Source: Escherichia phage ECML-183-2. From it: a stretch of DNA of 64,000 nt. Numbering within the stretch: the stretch's first letter is position 1; the number at the start of each line of letters is the position of its first letter. The position numbers and the translations under genes are program-made. The DNA is taken from the sequence record OL631481.1; one strand, written 5' to 3'. The notes beneath the pieces were generated by a model that searched no databases, had not been told where the DNA came from, and saw only the letters and a program-made list of their open reading frames with translations. Below, piece after piece: positions 2,580 through 49,659 of the stretch.

Positions 2580-3415
2580 CATATCTGGTATTGGGTGGTA
2601 ATGGACAACTGGGACAAGCTTTACGTAAAGTTGCCCCTGCAAATGTATCTTTAATTTATCCTAAAGAACGTGTAGATATTACAAATTTTGAAGCTGTGCG
2701 AAACGCTATTGTTGAAGATTATGTAGATGGTGTTATTAATTGCGCCGCTTATACGGCTGTAGATAAAGCCGAACAAGATTTTGCTACTGCTTTGGCTGTT
2801 AATGCTTATGGCCCTGCAAATATTGCGGCAGTGTGCAGCAAACTTAAAATTGATTTTGTGCATATTTCCACAGACTATATTTTTAATTATTCTCATCCTA
2901 TTTTTGAAGACACTGCACCTAACCCAATAAACAATTATGGGTATACGAAAGAACTTGGTGAAAAAATGGTGCGAGGAGTTAACCCAAATGCATATATTAT
3001 TCGAACAGCCTCGGTATATAGCGAATTTGGAAATAACTTTCTAAAAACCATGTTGTCTCGCTATAATGATGGACAACGTGATTTTATTATTGTTGCTGAT
3101 CAGTTCTCTTGTCCAACATATGCTCCAGATTTAGCAGAAGCTATTTTTGAAGTATTAAAAACAGGTTGGTCAAGGTCTGTTAAGACTTACCATTTTGCAG
3201 GAAGCCATCTTATTTCTTGGGCGGAGTTTGCGGAAAAGATCTTGACACAGATGCCAGAACCTGTTAAGATATCGGCGGTATCAGCTTCAACCTATAATGC
3301 TCCAGCAGCACGTCCGGTGAAGTCACAACTAATAACCAGTCACTATCTTACAAAATCAGATTTAAATAAAGGTATTGAACAGTCTTTAGCAGTATTACTT
3401 AATAAGGAGAGGTAA
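2573..3415 (+). CDS. rmlD: dTDP-4-dehydrorhamnose reductase
   Basis: 280 aa; N-terminal Rossmann GGNGQLG, STDYIF, catalytic YGYTK; overlaps rmlC stop. Confidence 0.9.
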   Translation: MLTYLVLGGNGQLGQALRKVAPANVSLIYPKERVDITNFEAVRNAIVEDYVDGVINCAAYTAVDKAEQDFATALAVNAYGPANIAAVCSKLKIDFVHISTDYIFNYSHPIFEDTAPNPINNYGYTKELGEKMVRGVNPNAYIIRTASVYSEFGNNFLKTMLSRYNDGQRDFIIVADQFSCPTYAPDLAEAIFEVLKTGWSRSVKTYHFAGSHLISWAEFAEKILTQMPEPVKISAVSASTYNAPAARPVKSQLITSHYLTKSDLNKGIEQSLAVLLNKER

Positions 3416-3675
3416 TGGAATTTGTAATTTTTGGTAAACCTAACTGTCAATTTTGCGAAATGTCAAAACAACTATTAACCATGCGCAATAAACAGTTTGA
3501 ATATTTAAGTCTTGATCAAGACTATGATTTAGAATCAATGACTAAAACAGTTGTTGATCTTACCGGAGTTCCTCCACGCACATTTCCACAAATTCTGTCT
3601 GAAGTGAACGGGGAGGTAACATACGTAGGCGGTTTTACCGAACTGCGTGATCTCATGGCTCAAATTGCGGAGTAA
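3415..3675 (+). CDS. nrdC: glutaredoxin/thioredoxin (T4 NrdC-like)
   Basis: 86 aa; CQFC active site, C-terminal GGFTELRDL resembles T4 NrdC GGFDQLREY. Confidence 0.75.
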   Translation: MEFVIFGKPNCQFCEMSKQLLTMRNKQFEYLSLDQDYDLESMTKTVVDLTGVPPRTFPQILSEVNGEVTYVGGFTELRDLMAQIAE

Positions 3676-34266: not shown

Positions 34267-34605
34267 TTATTCAATGCAAGCATTATTTGCATCTTCAATG
34301 CGATCTTTCACCCACTGAAGACGTAACTCGTTGGTATGACACGCTAAACCTATGCACTCTGAAAGGTAATCCATGCAATCTGCATTAAACGGGAAATTGT
34401 AATCTAGTCCTGCACCAATAAACTGGGATTTCATCTCTTGTTGTAGACGAGGTAACAGTTCATCAGGGTATGTTCCCTCTACATACTTAATCAAACATAT
34501 GCACAAACCACTCGTTGTGTGACCTTCTACCTCACCAGCAAGCCAAGCTTTGTAAAACTTCATTAGACGTAAACTACTTAACGGAACATTTTTACTCTCT
34601 TGCAT
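34267..34605 (-). CDS. member of six-copy paralogous family
   Basis: LMKFYKAWLAGEVEG ... NFPFN ... CHTNELRLQWVKDRIE; GAGGAG RBS. Confidence 0.5.
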   Translation of the reverse strand: MQESKNVPLSSLRLMKFYKAWLAGEVEGHTTSGLCICLIKYVEGTYPDELLPRLQQEMKSQFIGAGLDYNFPFNADCMDYLSECIGLACHTNELRLQWVKDRIEDANNACIE

Positions 34606-34944
34606 GACAATCTCCTCTCATCGTTAGCCATCTTTCATGGCAATCATCAATCACCAACATCATACGATCAATCTTAAGGAATTACAATCGAATTATCATA
34701 GGGGATTCCTATCAATTATCCCATATATACCGATTATTTTTGACACCCCATTCTTGTATAAAAAGTAACCCAAAATATCCACGGGGAGAGATTATTTCGA
34801 CACACCCTGTTTCATGGCAATCATGGCAAGAATATCTAATAGAATCAATATCATATGGCAAAAATCATGGCGCATACGTAAGAAGTGCTTAACGCGAATT
34901 TTCGGGCCGTCAGGTCCACGCAGCGACAATTCCCAAATATCATG

Positions 34945-34967
34945 CGAATGAGAATAATTATCATTCG
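34945..34967. promoter_or_regulatory. Fur-box-like palindrome
   Basis: cgaatgagaataattatcattcg; near-perfect dyad, ~13/15 match to TGATAATCATTATCA. Confidence 0.3.
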
Positions 34968-35126
34968 TATTCAATGACTTATGCAAGGCTCATGCCAACA
35001 TAGCGACAAGGTGGGCCACCTGATTATAAATCACACAAACACTTATTTATCAATGGTTTGGCAACTTCATCATATGACGGAACAATGTCAACTAATCCCG
35101 CTCATGACAGACGGACTATTATTTAT

Positions 35127-35145
35127 ATGAGAATGATTATTATTT
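35127..35145. promoter_or_regulatory. Fur-box-like site
   Basis: atgagaatgattattattt. Confidence 0.25.
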
Positions 35146-35379
35146 AAACGTTTATTAACATATAAACTAAAATAAATCAAGAATTTTCTGATTTTATTTA
35201 CGTTTAAGAGAAGGTGCTCAACATCCTACCGGATCGCCGTTGGCAATCCTCGGATATTTACGCCCCCATGATTAAGGTTTATCTCTTTTATAGCTCAACA
35301 TTCCCGCCTGTGGCGGTAACATTTCGCCCCCAAAATTATTGACTTTTATTCTATTATGTGCATAGTGTGCAATGTATCG

Positions 35380-35397
35380 GAATGATGATAATCATCC
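35380..35397. promoter_or_regulatory. Fur-box-like site
   Basis: gaatgatgataatcatcc; ~13/14 match to ATAATGATAATCAT. Confidence 0.3.
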
Positions 35398-36181
35398 TCC
35401 CATTGCCCCCATAATTATTGCCATGCTAATTGTTTCATTACGTAATTATTACAATGACTATTGTTATTGCGCTAATGTTATGATCTTGGTAATTACATAT
35501 AATGCTAATAATAAGCCAGCGCAATAAGTGTAAGCGTCATTACGCTTGCAATTATTGCAAGCTACGCAGTAACAAGAAATAACCATCACCGATGGTTATG
35601 ATTGTTGGGGTGTAGTTGGCTTATTATTAGCTCGCTATGTGTCCGGCATAGCGTGCTAATGATGACTCTGTGAATGATTCGTTTTGTAATGATTTCATTC
35701 AGGCACTATTTTGCTAATAGTTATTATTTTAATGGTTTCGTTTGTTATTGTTCGTTAGTTGGTTGTTTTGTCGTGTTATCGTTATTTTGCTTAGTATTTA
35801 TCATGGTTTGATTGTTTGTCGTTATCAATCATCTTGCTATTATTCCTTTGATTATGATTAGTTTGCTTATTGTTTTATGTTGTTTGTTGGTTAGTTGTTG
35901 CGAACTATTATCAACATTATAATTATGCGCTTATATTGCATAGATAATCATGGGTAGATGATAATGGTTATCATTGCACTAGAAAGGAGGTAAAAGGGTG
36001 TTTTTGATGGTTTGTTGTTGGTTGTTGATCGATTTTAACCGCTCTAAATAGCTCTCTAACAGCCTGTTGCCCTGGGATGTATGGTTATTCGTTTAATGGT
36101 CGATTAGCTCGATACCGTGATTTATTCAGTTTTGTTCTGTGTCGGTTTTTCATAGGCGAAAGCTATCAACATTGTTCGGGC

Positions 36182-36208
36182 AAAAAGAAAGGGCGCTTTG
36201 TGCGCCCT
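36182..36208 (-). terminator. rho-independent terminator closing the cassette array
   Basis: rc reads AGGGCGC-loop-GCGCCCT + TTTCTTTTT. Confidence 0.6.
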
Positions 36209-43974: not shown

Positions 43975-44029
43975 CGGCACCATTGCCGCCCTACGTGATA
44001 AACTATACCAGAAGTTTAAACAGTGTCAA
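43975..44029 (-). promoter_or_regulatory. PeSL-like cassette
   Basis: rc: TTGACA-15-TATAGT then GCGGCA-ATGG-TGCCGC hairpin. Confidence 0.5.
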
Positions 44030-44035
44030 CCGTTT

Positions 44036-44398
44036 TTATTCGTAAATTTTACCGCTTTCGGCCCATACCATAACGCGGCGCATACTATCCCAAGTGTTTT
44101 GATCCAGGTTTAAGCCGTGCAACTCTTCGGTACTTCCCAGACCAGGTACCGCTTTGTTGTAAGTCGCATATAAGCGCCCTTGATACTCATACGCCAGAGT
44201 AAGATCCGTTTGAATCATCTTTTTAAGCATAGCATTAAGCATCATATTAGCGGCATGTTGATCACGTTTTAGCGGTAACATGTCAATAAGGGCGCGATAA
44301 GCTGAAACATGAATATCAACCGTTTCACGTGGTAAATTTTTCATATCATCGCGGAAGGACACCAGGTTTAACATGATAGTATTGATTTGCTTGCTCAT
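44036..44398 (-). CDS. hypothetical protein (120 aa)
   Basis: ORF track; AAGGG RBS. Confidence 0.5.
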   Translation of the reverse strand: MSKQINTIMLNLVSFRDDMKNLPRETVDIHVSAYRALIDMLPLKRDQHAANMMLNAMLKKMIQTDLTLAYEYQGRLYATYNKAVPGLGSTEELHGLNLDQNTWDSMRRVMVWAESGKIYE

Positions 44399-44419
44399 TG
44401 TGTTACCCTTTTTTGTTTT

Positions 44420-44480
44420 GGCGGGGAAGTATTCCGCCGCCCTATGTGATACATCTTATCAGATTAAAAAACGTTGTCAA
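44420..44480 (-). promoter_or_regulatory. PeSL-like cassette
   Basis: rc: TTGACA-16-TAAGAT then GGCGG-loop-CCGCC hairpin. Confidence 0.55.
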
Positions 44481-44488
44481 GAATATTT

Positions 44489-44584
44489 TTAGAAAATAAT
44501 AGCCGCTACTACAATCCAAAATGGAACGGCTAGAATGATAGCGTTAATCGTTCCAACCGTCAAGCTATTTTCTTTATTAATCAT
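44489..44584 (-). CDS. small membrane protein (31 aa)
   Basis: Not in ORF track; AAGAGG RBS; hydrophobic C-terminus. Confidence 0.35.
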   Translation of the reverse strand: MINKENSLTVGTINAIILAVPFWIVVAAIIF

Positions 44585-44613
44585 TGTAAGCCTCTTGCAT
44601 AATTTCACTATGA

Positions 44614-44670
44614 GCGGCACCATTGCCGCCCTACGTGGTAAATATTATGCCAGTGGCGGCGATATGTCAA
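44614..44670 (-). promoter_or_regulatory. PeSL-like cassette
   Basis: rc: TTGACA-17-TAATAT then GCGGCA-ATGG-TGCCGC hairpin. Confidence 0.55.
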
Positions 44671-45224
44671 AGACTATTTTCAAAGTTTTCTAGTGCGATC
44701 CTTTTTTCTTCCTCTGTCGGCTGATAATCAGGAAAAGCATCAACACACAACAACGGCGGGATCTCTTCGTACTCTTCCTCTTCCGTTGTCTCCTCGTCTT
44801 CCTCCTGGGCTATGGCTGCAATTTTGGCTAATTTTCTTTCAGCTTGAATCAATTTACCATCAAGTACGTTTTTTGCCATGTTGTAAGCGGTCCAGGTGAT
44901 GCGCTTACTTTCCAGTGCTTGATCAAGCGCCGCTATCTTGCTGGGGTATTCATCCAGGACACGAAAAGCCGGATCAACTTTGTACAAAGGATTATCTTTC
45001 GCGCCGTCGCTCGCATCTTCCGCACTGGATAAATCAGCGTTACCATTTGCCAGCCAGCCAGGGCGCACATAACGCGCTTTTACGTTGCCGTTACTACGTG
45101 CTAATCTGTTACCTATTTGCTCACCACTATATCCCGTGGATTCATCGATAAGATGATCGGGAATGATGCGCGGATCATCTGCTTCATGTTTTACCCAAGA
45201 CTGGATCACATATTCGCGGCCCAT
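44667..45224 (-). CDS. hypothetical protein (185 aa), acidic C-terminus
   Basis: Track ORF trimmed to ATG; no cassette of its own, coupled to upstream gene. Confidence 0.5.
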   Translation of the reverse strand: MGREYVIQSWVKHEADDPRIIPDHLIDESTGYSGEQIGNRLARSNGNVKARYVRPGWLANGNADLSSAEDASDGAKDNPLYKVDPAFRVLDEYPSKIAALDQALESKRITWTAYNMAKNVLDGKLIQAERKLAKIAAIAQEEDEETTEEEEYEEIPPLLCVDAFPDYQPTEEEKRIALENFENSL

Positions 45225-45225
45225 A

Positions 45226-45483
45226 TTAACCACCTTTTTTCAACAATTGGCATACTTTAAAAAGACTTGCTGAATCCTTGCAAGGGTAGAAAGATGTACG
45301 ATAATCACGTACGCCAACCTTGCGGATCTCGATGTTCTCGCATGTTGTTTGATCAAAGATATTTATTTCATCACGCCCCCTTATATAAACATAGTGGGGA
45401 TGTATTAACGCATATTTTGCTAATCTGTAAAAAGCGTTATCTTTGAACGCGATCACGTGACCTTTTAATTTGATGTAAAACAT
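45226..45483 (-). CDS. hypothetical protein (85 aa)
   Basis: ORF track. Confidence 0.5.
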   Translation of the reverse strand: MFYIKLKGHVIAFKDNAFYRLAKYALIHPHYVYIRGRDEINIFDQTTCENIEIRKVGVRDYRTSFYPCKDSASLFKVCQLLKKGG

Positions 45484-45501
45484 TCTACCACCTTACAAAT
45501 A

Positions 45502-45556
45502 GCGGGAACTATTCCCGCTTTATGTAACATATTAACAAATTATTCGTTAATGTCAA
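45502..45556 (-). promoter_or_regulatory. PeSL-like cassette
   Basis: rc: TTGACA-16-TAATAT then GCGGGAA-TAG-TTCCCGC hairpin. Confidence 0.55.
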
Positions 45557-45559
45557 ACC

Positions 45560-45832
45560 TTAAAGCAAAAACGCTACATCTTGCGCTTTTAGTGTAGTAT
45601 CAACCATTTTCGGGCTTTTATAATCAACAAAGCGCGCGGTTTTTTCAATAGCGAAACCGAGATAATCTTGTTTATTGAATTTACATTCTTTCTTAAATGT
45701 TTCCCGCGCCACGGTGATCGCTGCGTCCAGGGATAAACGCCCGTCAATGTTGATATTTGCGAAAGATCCGCCACCGCTCATAGGTTTACCAGTGGTGCCA
45801 GCTACGATCATTGTTGCGCTATATGATGCCAT
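45560..45832 (-). CDS. hypothetical protein (90 aa)
   Basis: Track ORF trimmed to internal ATG. Confidence 0.5.
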   Translation of the reverse strand: MASYSATMIVAGTTGKPMSGGGSFANINIDGRLSLDAAITVARETFKKECKFNKQDYLGFAIEKTARFVDYKSPKMVDTTLKAQDVAFLL

Positions 45833-45857
45833 GATTATAATCTCTCTTCTGTTGTGA

Positions 45858-45918
45858 GCGGCTGGACCATTCCGCCGCCCTATGTGATACATCTTATCAG
45901 GTTGTTGTTTGTTGTCAA
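45858..45918 (-). promoter_or_regulatory. PeSL-like cassette
   Basis: rc: TTGACA-16-TAAGAT then GGCGG-loop-CCGCC hairpin. Confidence 0.55.
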
Positions 45919-45924
45919 TACTTT

Positions 45925-46122
45925 TTATTCTATTCCTGCAATTTGATTAACGCGCTTGCATTTTGTAGCGTGCTGGTCTTCTGTAATGACTCCCATTTCT
46001 AACAGGGAATCAATGAAAGATAAAACCGTTTCATGATCATCCTGGGGATGACTGAACTCAGTAAAACCGTTTACCACGACGCTGATTTGTCCTGCTTTCG
46101 CTACTATGTGCAATGTTGCCAT
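45925..46122 (-). CDS. hypothetical protein (65 aa)
   Basis: Track ORF trimmed to internal ATG with GGAG RBS. Confidence 0.5.
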   Translation of the reverse strand: MATLHIVAKAGQISVVVNGFTEFSHPQDDHETVLSFIDSLLEMGVITEDQHATKCKRVNQIAGIE

Positions 46123-46143
46123 GATTTTAACTCCAAATAATGA

Positions 46144-46200
46144 GCGGCACCATTGCCGCCCTACGTGGTAAATATTATGCCGCCACCTGGCGAACGTCAA
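46144..46200 (-). promoter_or_regulatory. PeSL-like cassette (last/upstream-most of array)
   Basis: rc: TTGACG-17-TAATAT then GCGGCA-ATGG-TGCCGC hairpin 46144-46159. Confidence 0.55.
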
Positions 46201-46309
46201 TCACTTTTTCAATCTTTTTTATTTTCTTTTTGCTTGCTATATATAAAAGAAAGGGCTATCATCTTTCTACCGCGCCAACCAGGGCGCACATCAAAGAAAG
46301 GGCGATACC

Positions 46310-46576
46310 ATGACAAATACTACATTACACCTTATGCACTCATTGGGCTGGCAAGGCGGCACGGTGCACCAGGTAGCAAGCGCAACGGGCTTAAAGGTTG
46401 AAACAGTTCTCAACCTGGGCGATCATAAGGTGGAAGAAATAGATCATTTTGATACGTTCGCAAATGGTTATCTATGGGCTTGCAGTGGCGGCGGGGAAAG
46501 CAAGATACCACCAGGGGCGCGGGGCGATATGTATTTTTGGTTAGGTGTCCTATCCTGGCAAGAAAACAAAAAATAA
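46310..46576 (+). CDS. hypothetical protein (88 aa) in GC-rich island
   Basis: Only plus-strand ORF in the minus block; weak RBS; local composition unlike surrounding DNA. Confidence 0.3.
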   Translation: MTNTTLHLMHSLGWQGGTVHQVASATGLKVETVLNLGDHKVEEIDHFDTFANGYLWACSGGGESKIPPGARGDMYFWLGVLSWQENKK

Positions 46577-46578
46577 TC

Positions 46579-46607
46579 TTGACAAGCCCAGGGATCGGGC
46601 TTATACT
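46579..46607 (+). promoter_or_regulatory. sigma70-type promoter of unknown target
   Basis: TTGACA-17-TATACT; downstream ~100 nt GC-rich with long-range complementarity, no ORF. Confidence 0.4.
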
Positions 46608-46838
46608 GTTTTACATACAGAAGAGGAAGCGCCACCCCACGGCGTAAAGGCGGGGCTAACATACCAGGGGGGGCACTGGTTGGAAGGTTGATCGCCGGTA
46701 GGCTGGGCGCTATATATTTGTAAAGAAATGTAAAGATAAAATAATCGCTTGCTTTCCTGGCTGGATCTGTTATTCTTATTACATGGCGAGGGGACACGGG
46801 AGCGCGAGACAAACACCGCCCCTGCGCGTCATTCTCTA

Positions 46839-46858
46839 AATGAGAATGATTATCATTT
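46839..46858. promoter_or_regulatory. Fur-box-like site
   Basis: aatgagaatgattatcattt; ~15/17 match to TGATAATGATAATCATT. Confidence 0.3.
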
Positions 46859-46898
46859 ACCTTATCAAATAAGAATCAATCTCATTTATAAACCTAAA

Positions 46899-46919
46899 TG
46901 CGAATCATTATCATTTGCA
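46899..46919. promoter_or_regulatory. Fur-box-like palindrome
   Basis: tgcgaatcattatcatttgca; contains AATCATTATCA. Confidence 0.3.
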
Positions 46920-46967
46920 TTTCCATATGAGAACTCTTCTCATTCCCATCTGCATAAATTTTTGTAA

Positions 46968-47146
46968 ACTTTAAATTTTGCTTTTGTACTTTCATTTTTG
47001 TAAAAGCAAAAAAACTTTAAATACTGTGGGCGCGCAAAATTTTTAAAATTTTCCTTGACTTTTGAGTTTTGTTTTGTATCTAACATTTTAAGATAATTTT
47101 CCTAAACTTTAAATTTTGGTTTTCAACTTTCACTTTTGTAAATTCT
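46968..47146. repeat. AT-rich direct repeats (two ~40-bp units) with inverted AAACTTTAAA/TTTAAAGTTT elements
   Basis: aaactttaaattttgcttttgtactttcatttttgtaaa vs aaactttaaattttggttttcaactttcacttttgtaaa. Confidence 0.6.
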
Positions 47147-47303
47147 TAAAAAGTTTAAATAATTTGAGGGATTTTTGAGATAATAGGTAGTGGGAATTTG
47201 AGATAACCTTTAATCTTATTAGTAGACCTTCAGGAACCCACTCAGATCGAATCCTAGTGATGCAAACTGAAAAAGACAAGGGTTTGTATAGGACAAAATA
47301 ACA

Positions 47304-47328
47304 GGCTCTCTACGGTGCTGTAGGAGCC
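47304..47328. terminator. hairpin terminator downstream of NADAR gene
   Basis: GGCTC ... GAGCC stem with T-rich tracts on both strands. Confidence 0.45.
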
Positions 47329-47384
47329 TTATTTCTGTGCTACAAAGTGACACCTTTGTTCTAAAAATGAAAAAAGTTAAAATA

Positions 47385-47927
47385 TCACAAATATCGTCTT
47401 TGCGGTATTTTGTCTGGGAAAAGTATTTCGATCAGTTTGTTATGATATTTACCTAAAAGATTTTGCCCTTTCCAGTTGACCGGATTTAGCACCCCTGGTT
47501 CATACATTCCCATTCCAATACCGTAAACCTTATCGTAAGGACTTGCTTCAACAAACGTTTTGTATTGGTAAAGGTGTAAGTCTGCATACAAATCTGGATT
47601 CTGTACATATTTCAAGCATAAACCTCGCATAACAATACGCTCACGGTTCTCTTCCCATACGTTGTTATCAAAATCCGACACTGCCCTACCCATACGTTTG
47701 TAATAAGCTTGAATCTTCTCATCTTTCCGTATCAAACTATGAGTCAGAATAGCCTGTGCAGTGTTGTGATCATTAAAAAGCAAAGCTTTACGCCACATTA
47801 TGTATTGTTCGACACAATTAAATGTCTGATTGTAACCTGGTTCGGTTTCTGTAAAGGGTGCAATATACCAATTACTAAAAACATCTTTATGTGAAAAGAA
47901 GAATACATAATCATCAGTTATTCGCAT
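47385..47927 (-). CDS. NADAR-domain (YbiA-like) protein
   Basis: 180 aa; FSNWY, EQYIMWRKA, WEENRERIVMRGL..KY.QNP.L, VEASPYD, GQNLLGK colinear with E. coli YbiA. Confidence 0.75.
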   Translation of the reverse strand: MRITDDYVFFFSHKDVFSNWYIAPFTETEPGYNQTFNCVEQYIMWRKALLFNDHNTAQAILTHSLIRKDEKIQAYYKRMGRAVSDFDNNVWEENRERIVMRGLCLKYVQNPDLYADLHLYQYKTFVEASPYDKVYGIGMGMYEPGVLNPVNWKGQNLLGKYHNKLIEILFPDKIPQRRYL

Positions 47928-48138
47928 TTTTCATACTCTCCAAAATTTCACGTTGCCCTTGCTGATAGGCTTTCATCAGAACTACTTTAAGGTTTGTCTC
48001 CAAGAGGTCTTCATTGTAATTATACCGCTCCACAACATATGTCAATTCATCATAAAGATGAAGAACGGGGTAGAATACAGGGTTATCTGCTAAACGTGCC
48101 ATAGTTTCTCCTTTGTTAATCCATCCACCAGTAGCCAT
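47914..48138 (-). CDS. hypothetical protein (74 aa)
   Basis: ORF track. Confidence 0.45.
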   Translation of the reverse strand: MATGGWINKGETMARLADNPVFYPVLHLYDELTYVVERYNYNEDLLETNLKVVLMKAYQQGQREILESMKNANN

Positions 48139-48481
48139 AAACTGCGTCTGCGTCGATGAGTTTGTGTTTGTTGTTCCGCATGTAGTCTAAGATAAGTAGA
48201 CGTTTATTGTATCTGGAGAGATTATGACCCTCTTTTCCGCCATAGTCAAAATATTTTGCAAGATCTTTACACTCAAACAAAATCAGTTCGGGAGTTTCTT
48301 CACACTGGTCTGTCTGGTACACTTGACGAATGATCATGTATACATCGTCGTCTTCCGCTAAATGCTCTACTGGTCCACATCCAGCAGGAACAAATTCATA
48401 GTCCCATCTGATCAGATGTTTCTCTACTGCTTCAAAGAAGTCCATTCTTTCGTTGCGCATAATTTGAACGTCAACTAACAT
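48116..48481 (-). CDS. hypothetical protein (121 aa)
   Basis: ORF track. Confidence 0.45.
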   Translation of the reverse strand: MLVDVQIMRNERMDFFEAVEKHLIRWDYEFVPAGCGPVEHLAEDDDVYMIIRQVYQTDQCEETPELILFECKDLAKYFDYGGKEGHNLSRYNKRLLILDYMRNNKHKLIDADAVYGYWWMD

Positions 48482-49659
48482 GTTTCCTCCTGTAATGTTC
48501 CACCATAAAGTTTATAAATGTTTTGTATTGATGCCATGCAAGATAACTCCGCTGTCTCTGTGTAGCCATCTGGCATAGCATATTTGCTCACTGCTTCCGT
48601 GTGAAGGACACGCTTACAACGCTTTTCTGCATCTTTGCATTGCTTCACAGTAGGGAAGTGCCACACTTGGCCCTGTTTCATAGTAAACACATTACGACTA
48701 TTTTGTTCTTTGATACGGCGATTACTATTATTAGCAATACCAAACTTCAGTGCACAGATAATATCTTGCTCATCGTAAATATAATTAATGTAGGCTTGTT
48801 GTTGATTTTTGTTAGCACACTGCGGACAACCTTGTCCTATGTTTAAAAGGTTGTTTGCAGTTCCTTTTTGTTCCCCATGACTCTTACATACGTATTTAAA
48901 CTTACCTATAGAAGATGGTTTGGTAATCCATCCTATCCAAACATACCCTTTCTTTTCTATTTTCTTTCTTACTTTATACGTAATCTGTTCCGCTGTATAC
49001 CTATAAGATGCAGAGCAACGGCAGGGTAAGTGTCCATATTTAAGATTGCTACGCGTCATATAAAACTTACCATCACATAGTCCAGCTTTAACATATTCAT
49101 CATGAGAACAAACAGGACACTGAACCATCCATACTGGATCACACCCTTTACGTTCCCCCGTGTTGGTGAAAATAGTGCCTTCCTTAAACTTCCCTGTAGA
49201 AAAGAAATCTGCAATATGTTGATCGTCGGGTATTGTTTGTGACCTCCTTGTGTTCTCATACCTACATATAAGACAACCACTGCCATGTTTAAAACTATCA
49301 AAACTACATGTATTCCATTCATGACCATACCTACAACGTAGCATCATTTTCGTACGCGCACCTTTAAACGGTTCTACGATACCTATGATGGTAATCCCCT
49401 TAGCTTCCGCTATTGGTTTACATTCAGTAAGGTATGTTTTTAAATCTTTAATTTGACCTGCACACATAGGACAACCACTACCACGTTTAAAACTGTTAAT
49501 ACTTGTAGTATCCCATTTATAACCACAATGACACAACAAATCAAGTTTTGTATTAACCCCTTTCCATTCTCCCGTCCATCCTAAGATTTGGATTTGCTTA
49601 CTCTCTGCTATTGGTTGACACTCTTCTTTATATTGTTCCCATGATTTTGGTGCTGCCAT
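48475..49659 (-). CDS. T5orf172 (GIY-YIG-like) domain protein with four N-terminal CxxC zinc-ribbon repeats
   Basis: Repeated W..F..GSGCP.C units; C-terminal YINYIYDEQD..KFGIANN..RR ... GYTETAEL. Confidence 0.5.
   Translation of the reverse strand: MAAPKSWEQYKEECQPIAESKQIQILGWTGEWKGVNTKLDLLCHCGYKWDTTSINSFKRGSGCPMCAGQIKDLKTYLTECKPIAEAKGITIIGIVEPFKGARTKMMLRCRYGHEWNTCSFDSFKHGSGCLICRYENTRRSQTIPDDQHIADFFSTGKFKEGTIFTNTGERKGCDPVWMVQCPVCSHDEYVKAGLCDGKFYMTRSNLKYGHLPCRCSASYRYTAEQITYKVRKKIEKKGYVWIGWITKPSSIGKFKYVCKSHGEQKGTANNLLNIGQGCPQCANKNQQQAYINYIYDEQDIICALKFGIANNSNRRIKEQNSRNVFTMKQGQVWHFPTVKQCKDAEKRCKRVLHTEAVSKYAMPDGYTETAELSCMASIQNIYKLYGGTLQEETC

Follow-up and report, generated by a model that had tools for sequence, protein, structure and literature searches.

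In the primary origin of bacteriophage T7 and in the T4 origins oriF (uvsY) and oriG (34), promoters drive transcription into an adjacent AT-rich segment that unwinds, and the RNA made there encodes no protein; transcription depends on the phage's own RNA polymerase in T7 and on MotA-dependent middle promoters in T4. Iteron origins (lambda ori, P4 ori, SPP1 oriL, T4 oriE and those of theta plasmids) carry direct repeats of 12-22 bp beside AT-rich DNA, and the plasmid ColE1 has a structured, G-containing leader (RNA II) upstream of its start, together with a second short stem-loop RNA (RNA I), antisense to the first, with a conserved loop. Here we describe a module that resembles each of these in part, located within positions 46,201-47,384 of a 64,000-nucleotide (nt) stretch of Escherichia phage ECML-183-2 (OL631481.1; this whole stretch is called the window below). 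On a tentative reading, which we would stop short of calling probable and which draws on analogy with these systems, the module is a conserved cis-acting replication origin of the iteron type that is activated or primed by transcription.

Organization and conservation of the module

The module consists, from left to right (Table 1), of a promoter (P1), a structured non-coding RNA candidate (RNA1), a GTAAA-N5-GTAAA box, a second promoter (P2), a hairpin RNA (RNA2), an array of palindromes, three or four direct repeats and a pair of TTTGAGATA motifs. Relatives were retrieved through the 88-amino-acid (aa) protein encoded beside it and through the conserved DNA, and this order of parts is common to two subfamilies, Stephanstirmvirinae and Vequintavirinae; the flanking genes vary. 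It was found in Phapecoctavirus, Justusliebigvirus, unclassified Klebsiella and Citrobacter Stephanstirmvirinae, Certrevirus, Seunavirus and Mydovirus, also in W70/A73-like Vequintavirinae and, in a reduced form, in Vequintavirus (rV5). The stretch of ~0.8-1 kb is blank or filled with tiny open reading frames (ORFs) in all annotated records, and the genome map of the rV5 paper carries an uncommented 'non-coding' box, whose identity with this locus is not confirmed (PMC3606486). The module is the most conserved non-coding DNA of these genomes. The original prediction, made from the letters of the window, had proposed horizontally acquired DNA plus a small RNA gene, or an origin with iterons; four palindromes (46836-46944) and the second promoter with its hairpin RNA are features beyond it.

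Table 1. Positions of the features of the module and its surroundings in the window
Feature	Position	Strand	Remarks
Promoter-like site TTGCTA-17-TATCAT	46234..46262	+	9/12 matches; putative role, from its position
88-aa protein gene, phrog_19316	46310..46576	+	PHROG match, E 2e-59
P1, TTGACA-17-TATACT	46579..46607	+	11/12 matches, best in the region
RNA1, structured non-coding RNA candidate	46613..46716	+	Covariance model 107.8 bits, one copy in the window
GTAAAGAAATGTAAA, exact CpxR-P consensus GTAAA-N5-GTAAA	46720..46734	+	Predicted box directly upstream of P2
P2, TTGCTT-16-TATTCT	46749..46776	+	Putative; read from alignments, below the threshold of the promoter scan
RNA2 hairpin, loop GAGACAAACACC, then invariant YATTCT	46781..46832	+	Loop conserved, inner stems lineage-variable
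Four palindromes, 7-1-7 type TGAGAATnATTCTCA	46829..46944	.	~29-bp spacing, Fur-box-like
Iteron-like direct repeats	46957..47166	+	Full copies 46957-47028 and 47095-47166; degenerate middle copy 47046-47078
Weak P3-like site TTGACT-16-TATCTA	47055..47082	+	Inside the middle repeat; read by eye, not in the promoter scan
TTTGAGATAA motif pair, 23 bp apart	47174..47206	+	Recurs in relatives
GC-rich hairpin	47303..47329	.	phAPEC8 annotates an ARNold-predicted terminator here

A machine working at the level of DNA, rather than a mere small-RNA locus, is suggested because the order of parts is kept across subfamilies, because the conserved promoters aim against the neighbouring genes into the most AT-rich DNA, where there is no coding target, and because the repeats keep their geometry while their sequence changes. 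The anatomy of the module, its conservation and order, its non-coding status and a partial covariation in its RNA are observed, and from them we infer transcription, protein binding and the initiation of replication in the following way. Host sigma-70 RNA polymerase would initiate at P1 and also at P2, a weaker promoter of the activator type, and transcribe rightward, opposing all flanking genes; after RNA1 and the RNA2 hairpin, which together make a structured leader rich in G, it would pass an array of palindromes able to bind a regulator, and transcription would then enter the most AT-rich DNA, with its three lineage-specific repeats ~70 bp apart. A phage-encoded protein would assemble on these repeats, and transcription or the RNA itself (as an R-loop or a primer) would open the AT-rich DNA. 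RNA1 has a GC skew of +0.23 plus a G run, and by analogy to the ColE1 and T4 origins its G-richness suggests that RNA-DNA hybrids would be favoured.

As in iteron origins, there are at least three regularly spaced direct repeats and an overlapping AT-rich candidate unwinding element; their sequence is lineage-specific with number and spacing kept, and a small phage gene is adjacent. On the other hand, the units of the module (~60-75 bp) are widely spaced, no DnaA or IHF sites accompany them and they do not lie inside an initiator gene. As in the transcription-primed origins of T7 and T4, a conserved predicted promoter points into an AT-rich region with no conserved ORF downstream, and the G-rich RNA would be compatible with a persistent RNA-DNA hybrid. 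The module differs from both in that its promoters are of the host sigma-70 type, in that P1 is separated from the AT-rich DNA by ~340 bp of highly conserved structured RNA with regulator-like boxes, and in its iteron-like repeats; it shares no sequence homology with either. With ColE1 it shares the structured leader upstream of the presumed start and the second short stem-loop with a conserved loop, whereas RNA2 is co-directional with RNA1 and not antisense to it, its loop lacks complementarity to RNA1 and there is no homology. The module as a whole is kin to known phage origins and control regions and makes no new category, and RNA1 is, by the Rfam test, an undescribed RNA family.

Direct repeats and AT-rich DNA

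The two full repeats are 72 nt long, 82% identical and 138 bp apart, and lie inside the most AT-rich DNA of the window: with 23.8% guanine plus cytosine (GC), 46951-47215 is the lowest 265-nt window in the 64 kb, and it adjoins the segment of highest GC. Two direct repeats of ~40 bp had been noticed in the original prediction; they are real, but longer, and a degenerate third copy lies between them. The inverted elements TAAACTTT and AAAGTTTA and the repeated TTTGAGATA motifs that it listed are also present, the former located within the repeat units. Seven other lineages have three direct repeats each (four in W70), with start-to-start distances of 63-78 bp (75/67, 67/76, 63/78, 76/67, 74/65 and 67/74 bp; W70 also has a 32/52-bp pair). 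Repeats, three or four per lineage, therefore exist in the related genomes, and their sequence is lineage-specific: AAACTTTAAAT... in Stephanstirmvirinae, ...ATACGAT..TCGATCGAGAACC in Seuna-, Certre- and Mydovirus, to which the form in rV5 is related, and GAAAAACCTCTCAAGTTC in W70. Keeping number and spacing while changing sequence is what iterons co-evolving with a specificity protein do, and by this analogy the units would be iterons. The idea of an origin with iterons is thus plausible, repeats being present in every lineage examined, although the evidence is circumstantial.

Downstream of the repeats, TTTGAGATA(A) occurs at 47174 and 47197, these being two of the three copies of TTTGAGATA in the window, and a pair spaced 22-23 bp recurs at this place in both subfamilies. 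In other lineages a clearer promoter stands between the palindromes and the repeats; in the window such a P3 is doubtful. Short AAATATCA repeats are found at the right edge of the module (47380-47396), near the stop of the downstream minus-strand gene, and recur there (2-4 copies) in 4MG, CR9, W70, phi92, Tr1 and Mydo.

Three regular repeats together with short ones (TTTGAGATA, AAATATCA) resemble multi-site recognition regions, and the repeats could serve as a packaging (pac) site or another nucleoprotein recognition site, for instance for the small terminase. The Vequintavirinae repeats contain GATC, with 7-9 of them in a region of ~0.9 kb in 4MG, CR9 and Mydo, and several GenBank records start or end within ~2 kb. 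We consider this very improbable: the window-type repeats lack GATC, the vicinity has no terminase gene, a pac site would leave the promoters and RNAs unexplained, and the record starts differ. At least one of these starts goes back to an annotated 80-bp repeat with which the record both opens and closes, probably an assembly break at the repeats. Physical genome ends near the locus were discarded for the same variation in record starts and the same 80-bp repeat. The record of Salmonella phage R7 (PQ002170.1; L167/L168) starts and ends inside the module, with an 80-bp repeat annotated as 'attL/attR', and its ends are probably an assembly break at the direct repeats; R7 is filed under Demerecviridae despite its Vequintavirinae-type module.

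P1 and RNA1

The consensus-like promoter of the original prediction is P1, whose -35 TTGAC and positions A2 and T6 of the -10 are invariant in nine aligned loci; in Mydovirus and Seunavirus loci the -35 reads TTGCAA. The spacer of P1 forms a GC hairpin (46584-46602) in every lineage, with lineage-specific sequence, which was flagged as terminator-like and may also terminate the transcript of the 88-aa gene. P1 and ~100 nt behind it are near-invariant across Stephanstirmvirinae and most Vequintavirinae. Within RNA1, ~70 nt are practically invariant (ACGCCACCCCACGGCGnAAAGGCGGGGCUAAC ... GGAAGGUGrAUCGCCGG), when the adjacent protein has 41-58% identity in the same loci, and a BLASTN search with RNA1 gave 228 phage records with a single copy each. 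RNA1 is taken as non-coding because the length of the G run in its loop varies (3-7 nt across sequences, through indels of 1-4 nt).

A covariance model of RNA1 was built from 20 sequences. The fold comprises a CGCC/GGCG hairpin and a long-range GGCGG/UCGCC helix that encloses a covarying ACC..GGU hairpin, together with the loop with the variable G run. In the enclosed hairpin an A-U/G-C pair switches 11:13 among sequences; in total four pairs are changed on both sides, and 96.5% of cells are paired versus 22-52% in shifted controls, the model itself having guided this alignment. There is hardly any variation in helices 1 and 2, and most helices are invariant, hence uninformative on covariation. 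The minimum free energy (MFE) z-score is -2.0 to -2.5 in the window and ~0 in homologues, so that stability is unremarkable. The original prediction had drawn attention to complementarity between AGCGCC (46628-46633) and GGCGCT (46706-46711); both segments are there and pair in the MFE fold, but only the closest relatives preserve this helix, and other genera have non-complementary sequence in its place. A structured non-coding RNA is supported, nevertheless, by the conserved promoter, the non-coding status and compensatory changes, the covariation being modest, and the earlier proposal of a small RNA gene gains comparative support from the near-invariance of promoter and ~100 nt, from the G run and from covariation. 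It belongs to no known family according to Rfam: a cmscan of 44000-49000 on both strands at E<=1 gave no match.

Divergent variants (RNA1b, 22-31 bits) were detected in Citrobacter phage Tr1, in the metagenomic locus L009 and in Raoultella phage Ro1, where the variant is the second copy; a scan for further copies of RNA1b gave eight unrelated loci. In RNA1b a single GGCG faces two CGCC partners, which hints at alternative structures. In Ro1 (L028, reverse strand 2690-3530), a gene for a 197-aa HNH endonuclease directly follows the RNA1 core (..GGATCGCTGGTAC|), and is itself followed by a second promoter and the divergent RNA1b copy. In Klebsiella phage K23PH08C2, too, the match overlies an annotated HNH gene.

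P2 and RNA2

P2 is weak in the window and better elsewhere (TTGCAA-17-TATATT), with a predicted start at ~46781-46783. Its transcript would begin with ACAUrGCG and fold at once into the RNA2 hairpin. In the outer stem of RNA2 one pair is A-U in 6 and G-C in 5 sequences, and three other pairs alternate between G-C and G-U. A small ORF at the start of RNA2 (46783-46839) was rejected, its ATG reading ATA in most lineages; no plus-strand ORF of at least 30 aa starts after 46749, and smaller ones are not conserved. In rV5_ev158 (L042, 1300-1560) there are two tandem units, each with a promoter, an RNA2-type hairpin (loop GGAGACAAnCACC) and a Fur-like palindrome.

It is possible, if on the unlikely side, that the module is mainly a source of two trans-acting early small RNAs, RNA1 of ~100 nt and RNA2, a hairpin of ~50 nt with the loop GAGACAAACACC, with targets in the host or the phage (they might, for example, sequester a protein, regulate by antisense pairing or serve as a decoy against defence), the repeats being unrelated regulatory DNA. 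The near-invariance of RNA1 over two subfamilies, which exceeds that of adjacent coding DNA, the strong conserved P1 and the covarying pairs agree with this, as do conserved single-stranded GGA stretches and a conserved CA-rich loop that resemble binding sites for factors or targets and the homing-endonuclease gene right behind RNA1 in Ro1, with a second variant copy after it. However, neither RNA has a canonical intrinsic terminator or a U-tail (no GC hairpin with U-tract follows RNA1, and RNA2 is followed only by YAUUCU), MFE stability is ordinary in most homologues, a search of the window for antisense targets of the RNA2 loop stayed at chance level, Rfam holds no relative, rV5 dispenses with RNA1, and the strict linkage of the RNAs to repeats and AT-rich DNA would be left unexplained. 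If the RNAs act in trans, more than 200 genomes would share a family of phage RNA that is new.

CpxR-like box and Fur-like palindromes

The consensus of phosphorylated CpxR (CpxR-P) is GTAAA-N5-GTAAA (PMC4846824). An exact match occurs once in the window versus 0.25 expected, and 23 of 100 shuffles reach one. The box is kept in all lineages with RNA1 except W70/A73, always just upstream of P2; the gap between the two, mostly 5 nt, is 13-15 nt in the clade of the window, a difference of 8-10 bp. In contigs of unrelated phages, one of them a 346-kb jumbo phage, a longer motif, TGTAAAGAnnTGTAAAGA, which is a direct repeat of the CpxR consensus, precedes -35 hexamers by 2-5 nt, and this makes it a general promoter-upstream element of enterobacterial phages. 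This use in other phages was exposed by a scan of the collection with TGTAAAGANNTGTAAAGA, whose matches were mostly unrelated. In contigs L045, L116 and L049/L085 the motif accompanies sigma-70-like promoters, sometimes in three copies with a 10-bp period, and in seven T5-like loci it is next to a divergent promoter. T5-like loci with a GTAAAG box were tried as relatives of the module and rejected, the module being absent there.

The Fur box is known as GATAATGATAATCATTATC, or in the 7-1-7 form as TGATAATnATTATCA. The strongest Fur-like sites of the array start at 46842 (16/19 matches) and at 46836, 46848, 46894 and 46900 (14/19 each); the first is the best match in the 64 kb to the Fur consensus GATAATGATWATCATTATC, and five sites of at least 14/19 within 161 nt compare with 0.013 expected from local composition. 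The hexamers are in phase as in extended Fur sites. Palindromes are conserved in every lineage, in 1-5 copies, and the copy in 4MG contains GATAATGATTATCATT, with 16 consecutive matches. Unlike Fur boxes, the half-site is typically TGAGAAT and not TGATAAT, and the palindromes overlap no predicted core promoter (-10/-35), lying at ~+55 to +160 from the P2 start or, in relatives, 15-28 bp upstream of the next -35; the resemblance is one of sequence. They look like general regulator sites, for host Fur or for a phage protein. Another large low-coding stretch of the window (34600-36200) has Fur-like sites at 34944, 34950, 35129, 35381, 35954 and 35960 (14-15/19), and T/G-rich low-complexity DNA at 35680-35900.

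These boxes raise the question of a link between host physiology and early phage development. It could be that the module is a host-signal switch, with Fur (iron) acting on the palindromes and CpxR-P (envelope stress) on the GTAAA box, so that host physiology would set the level of rightward and early transcription and replication would not be involved; this seems unlikely to us. The cluster of Fur-like sites, headed by the best match in the window, and the 4MG copy speak for it, and among phages of Escherichia, Klebsiella, Salmonella, Cronobacter, Pectobacterium and Proteus the palindromes are alike in sequence although the repeats diverge, a pattern compatible with a conserved host protein as their ligand. 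The exact CpxR consensus, a direct repeat that closely precedes a promoter whose -35 is poor, at gaps differing between lineages, and the same box upstream of promoters in unrelated phages point in the same direction. Against this, the evidence consists of consensus resemblances, the palindromes sit off the core promoter, unlike classical Fur operators, a lone exact CpxR match in 64 kb falls short of significance, and a phage-encoded regulator of similar specificity would serve as well. For the GTAAA box also, the conserved motif of the module (TGTAAAGAnnTGTAAAGA) is longer than the CpxR-P box; a phage factor or another host factor may act there. It is quite improbable, in our estimate, that RNA1 and RNA1b form a class of regulatory RNA with alternative pairings (a 5' CGCC and a 3' CGCC would compete for one GGCG) which, together with the Fur and CpxR sites, couples iron and envelope stress to the firing of the origin; if true, a lytic phage would time its replication via host stress regulators and a switch-like RNA.

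Base composition

The segment 46230-46850 has 48.6% GC, the top of 1268 sliding windows of 621 nt (mean 38.9%, standard deviation 2.4), in agreement with the original prediction, which had described it as visibly more GC-rich than the surrounding phage DNA. RNA1 has 59.6% GC, RNA2 70% and the 88-aa gene 47.6%, and the segment is GC-rich because it holds structured RNA and one GC-rich conserved gene. That this half is a moron or island, a piece of foreign DNA acquired recently and devoid of conserved function, as its composition and the only plus-strand gene of the block might indicate, can hardly be credited. It is present, syntenic and in single copy in 228 records of two subfamilies, a search of 185,579 bacterial and archaeal genomes for homologues of the module gave none except one phage contig binned in a metagenome-assembled genome, there are no mobility genes in the window, and the GC is explained by RNA1, RNA2 and the conserved gene. 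The horizontal acquisition that had been proposed earlier is contradicted by this distribution.

Weighing of the replication origin

The trans-acting RNAs and the host-signal switch are partly compatible with the replication origin that we tentatively prefer, and in favour of which the place of the module at the head of the leftward early-gene cluster and its single copy per genome also count. Several observations weigh against such an origin. GC skew shows no switch at the module and tracks gene orientation, as was the case in rV5, where the authors' skew analysis failed to locate the origin and the skew followed gene orientation likewise (PMC3606486). In the region, neither DnaA sites (TTATCCACA, with at most one mismatch) nor IHF sites (WATCAANNNNTTR) were found, relatives having scattered one-mismatch DnaA-like sites only. 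There is no candidate for the initiator protein, the neighbouring genes giving NADAR, CapR and AAA domains only; for the 88-aa protein, structure searches gave no recognisable DNA-binding fold, and its variable half does not track the type of repeat, Tr1 having window-type repeats and a different C-terminal half. P2 and P3 are weak by consensus in the window, Fur-like sites also cluster at 34.9-36.0 kb and are thus general rather than origin-specific, rV5 lacks RNA1, and literature searches on this locus retrieved no paper. Finally, RNA1 and the loop of RNA2 are conserved far beyond the need of a primer or R-loop, which suggests that they also bind a factor or target as RNAs.

Phages similar to phAPEC8, phi92, PVP-SE1, CR3 and Mydo are widely used candidates for therapy and biocontrol. 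If the module is an origin, it would provide a cis element for engineering (minimal replicons or safe deletion maps, for example) and would add a sigma-70-driven, iteron-bearing type to the known phage origins.

Genes and other elements around the module

The window comes from a phAPEC8-like phage (Phapecoctavirus, Stephanstirmvirinae), with 98.5% identity to vB_EcoM_UP17 over the 1.4 kb queried. The minus strand carries all genes from ~18.4 to 53.8 kb, the sole exception being the ORF of the 88-aa protein, in accordance with its earlier description as the only plus-strand ORF of the block. The module lies in a gap of ~1.1-1.2 kb between two leftward transcription units, at the head of the early-gene cluster, flanked by a gene for a NADAR-domain protein (47385..47927, minus strand) and an early gene for 65 aa (45925..46122, minus strand). 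The GC-rich hairpin at its right end would end the upstream minus-strand NADAR operon and would also stop rightward transcripts, forming the right boundary of the module. The promoter scan gave 13 promoter-like sites in the region versus 4.8 expected; the one that precedes the 88-aa gene and the first leftward early promoter of the cluster (46200-46172) point away from each other. A search of the window for tRNA and tmRNA genes found none.

The plus-strand ORF represents, by its conservation, a real protein gene: it has 21 homologues, with identity down to ~41%, all of ~88 aa and with an invariant N-terminal half. AlphaFold2 gives an all-helical model of five helices with a predicted local distance difference test score (pLDDT) of 93; structural searches with this model gave no significant fold match, and sequence searches no match in Pfam, NCBIfam or the Protein Data Bank (PDB). 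The gene adjoins the module in most lineages, not in all: in L008 the module precedes the gene in inverted orientation, and CR9 has no annotated plus-strand ORF there. The minus-strand ORF 46468..46812 (phAPEC8_00257) was rejected as a gene, as it has no family and as indels in the G run disrupt its frame in five close relatives; gene 257 of phAPEC8 is an annotation artefact overlying RNA1. Similar spurious calls over RNA1 occur in several records (e.g., L001 3363-3704), and in the records of Tr1, F2M1E and W70/A73 small ORFs fill the repeats.

The NADAR-domain protein (E 1.6e-34) is labelled 'GTP cyclohydrolase II' in some records, and two genes from it a 394-aa protein (48475-49659, minus strand) has four stretches of CapR homology and a treble-clef zinc finger. 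A leader-like element, CGTAGGGCGGC, is present in 13 copies (at most one mismatch; 0.14 expected) between 37944 and 46165, all on the minus strand and each directly downstream of a leftward early promoter, the last of them at 46155-46165, behind the promoter at 46200-46172. These copies are the 'PHIRE promoters' of the phAPEC8 annotation, and T5-like genomes carry a very similar element, tcattgccgccctacgagataaataata.

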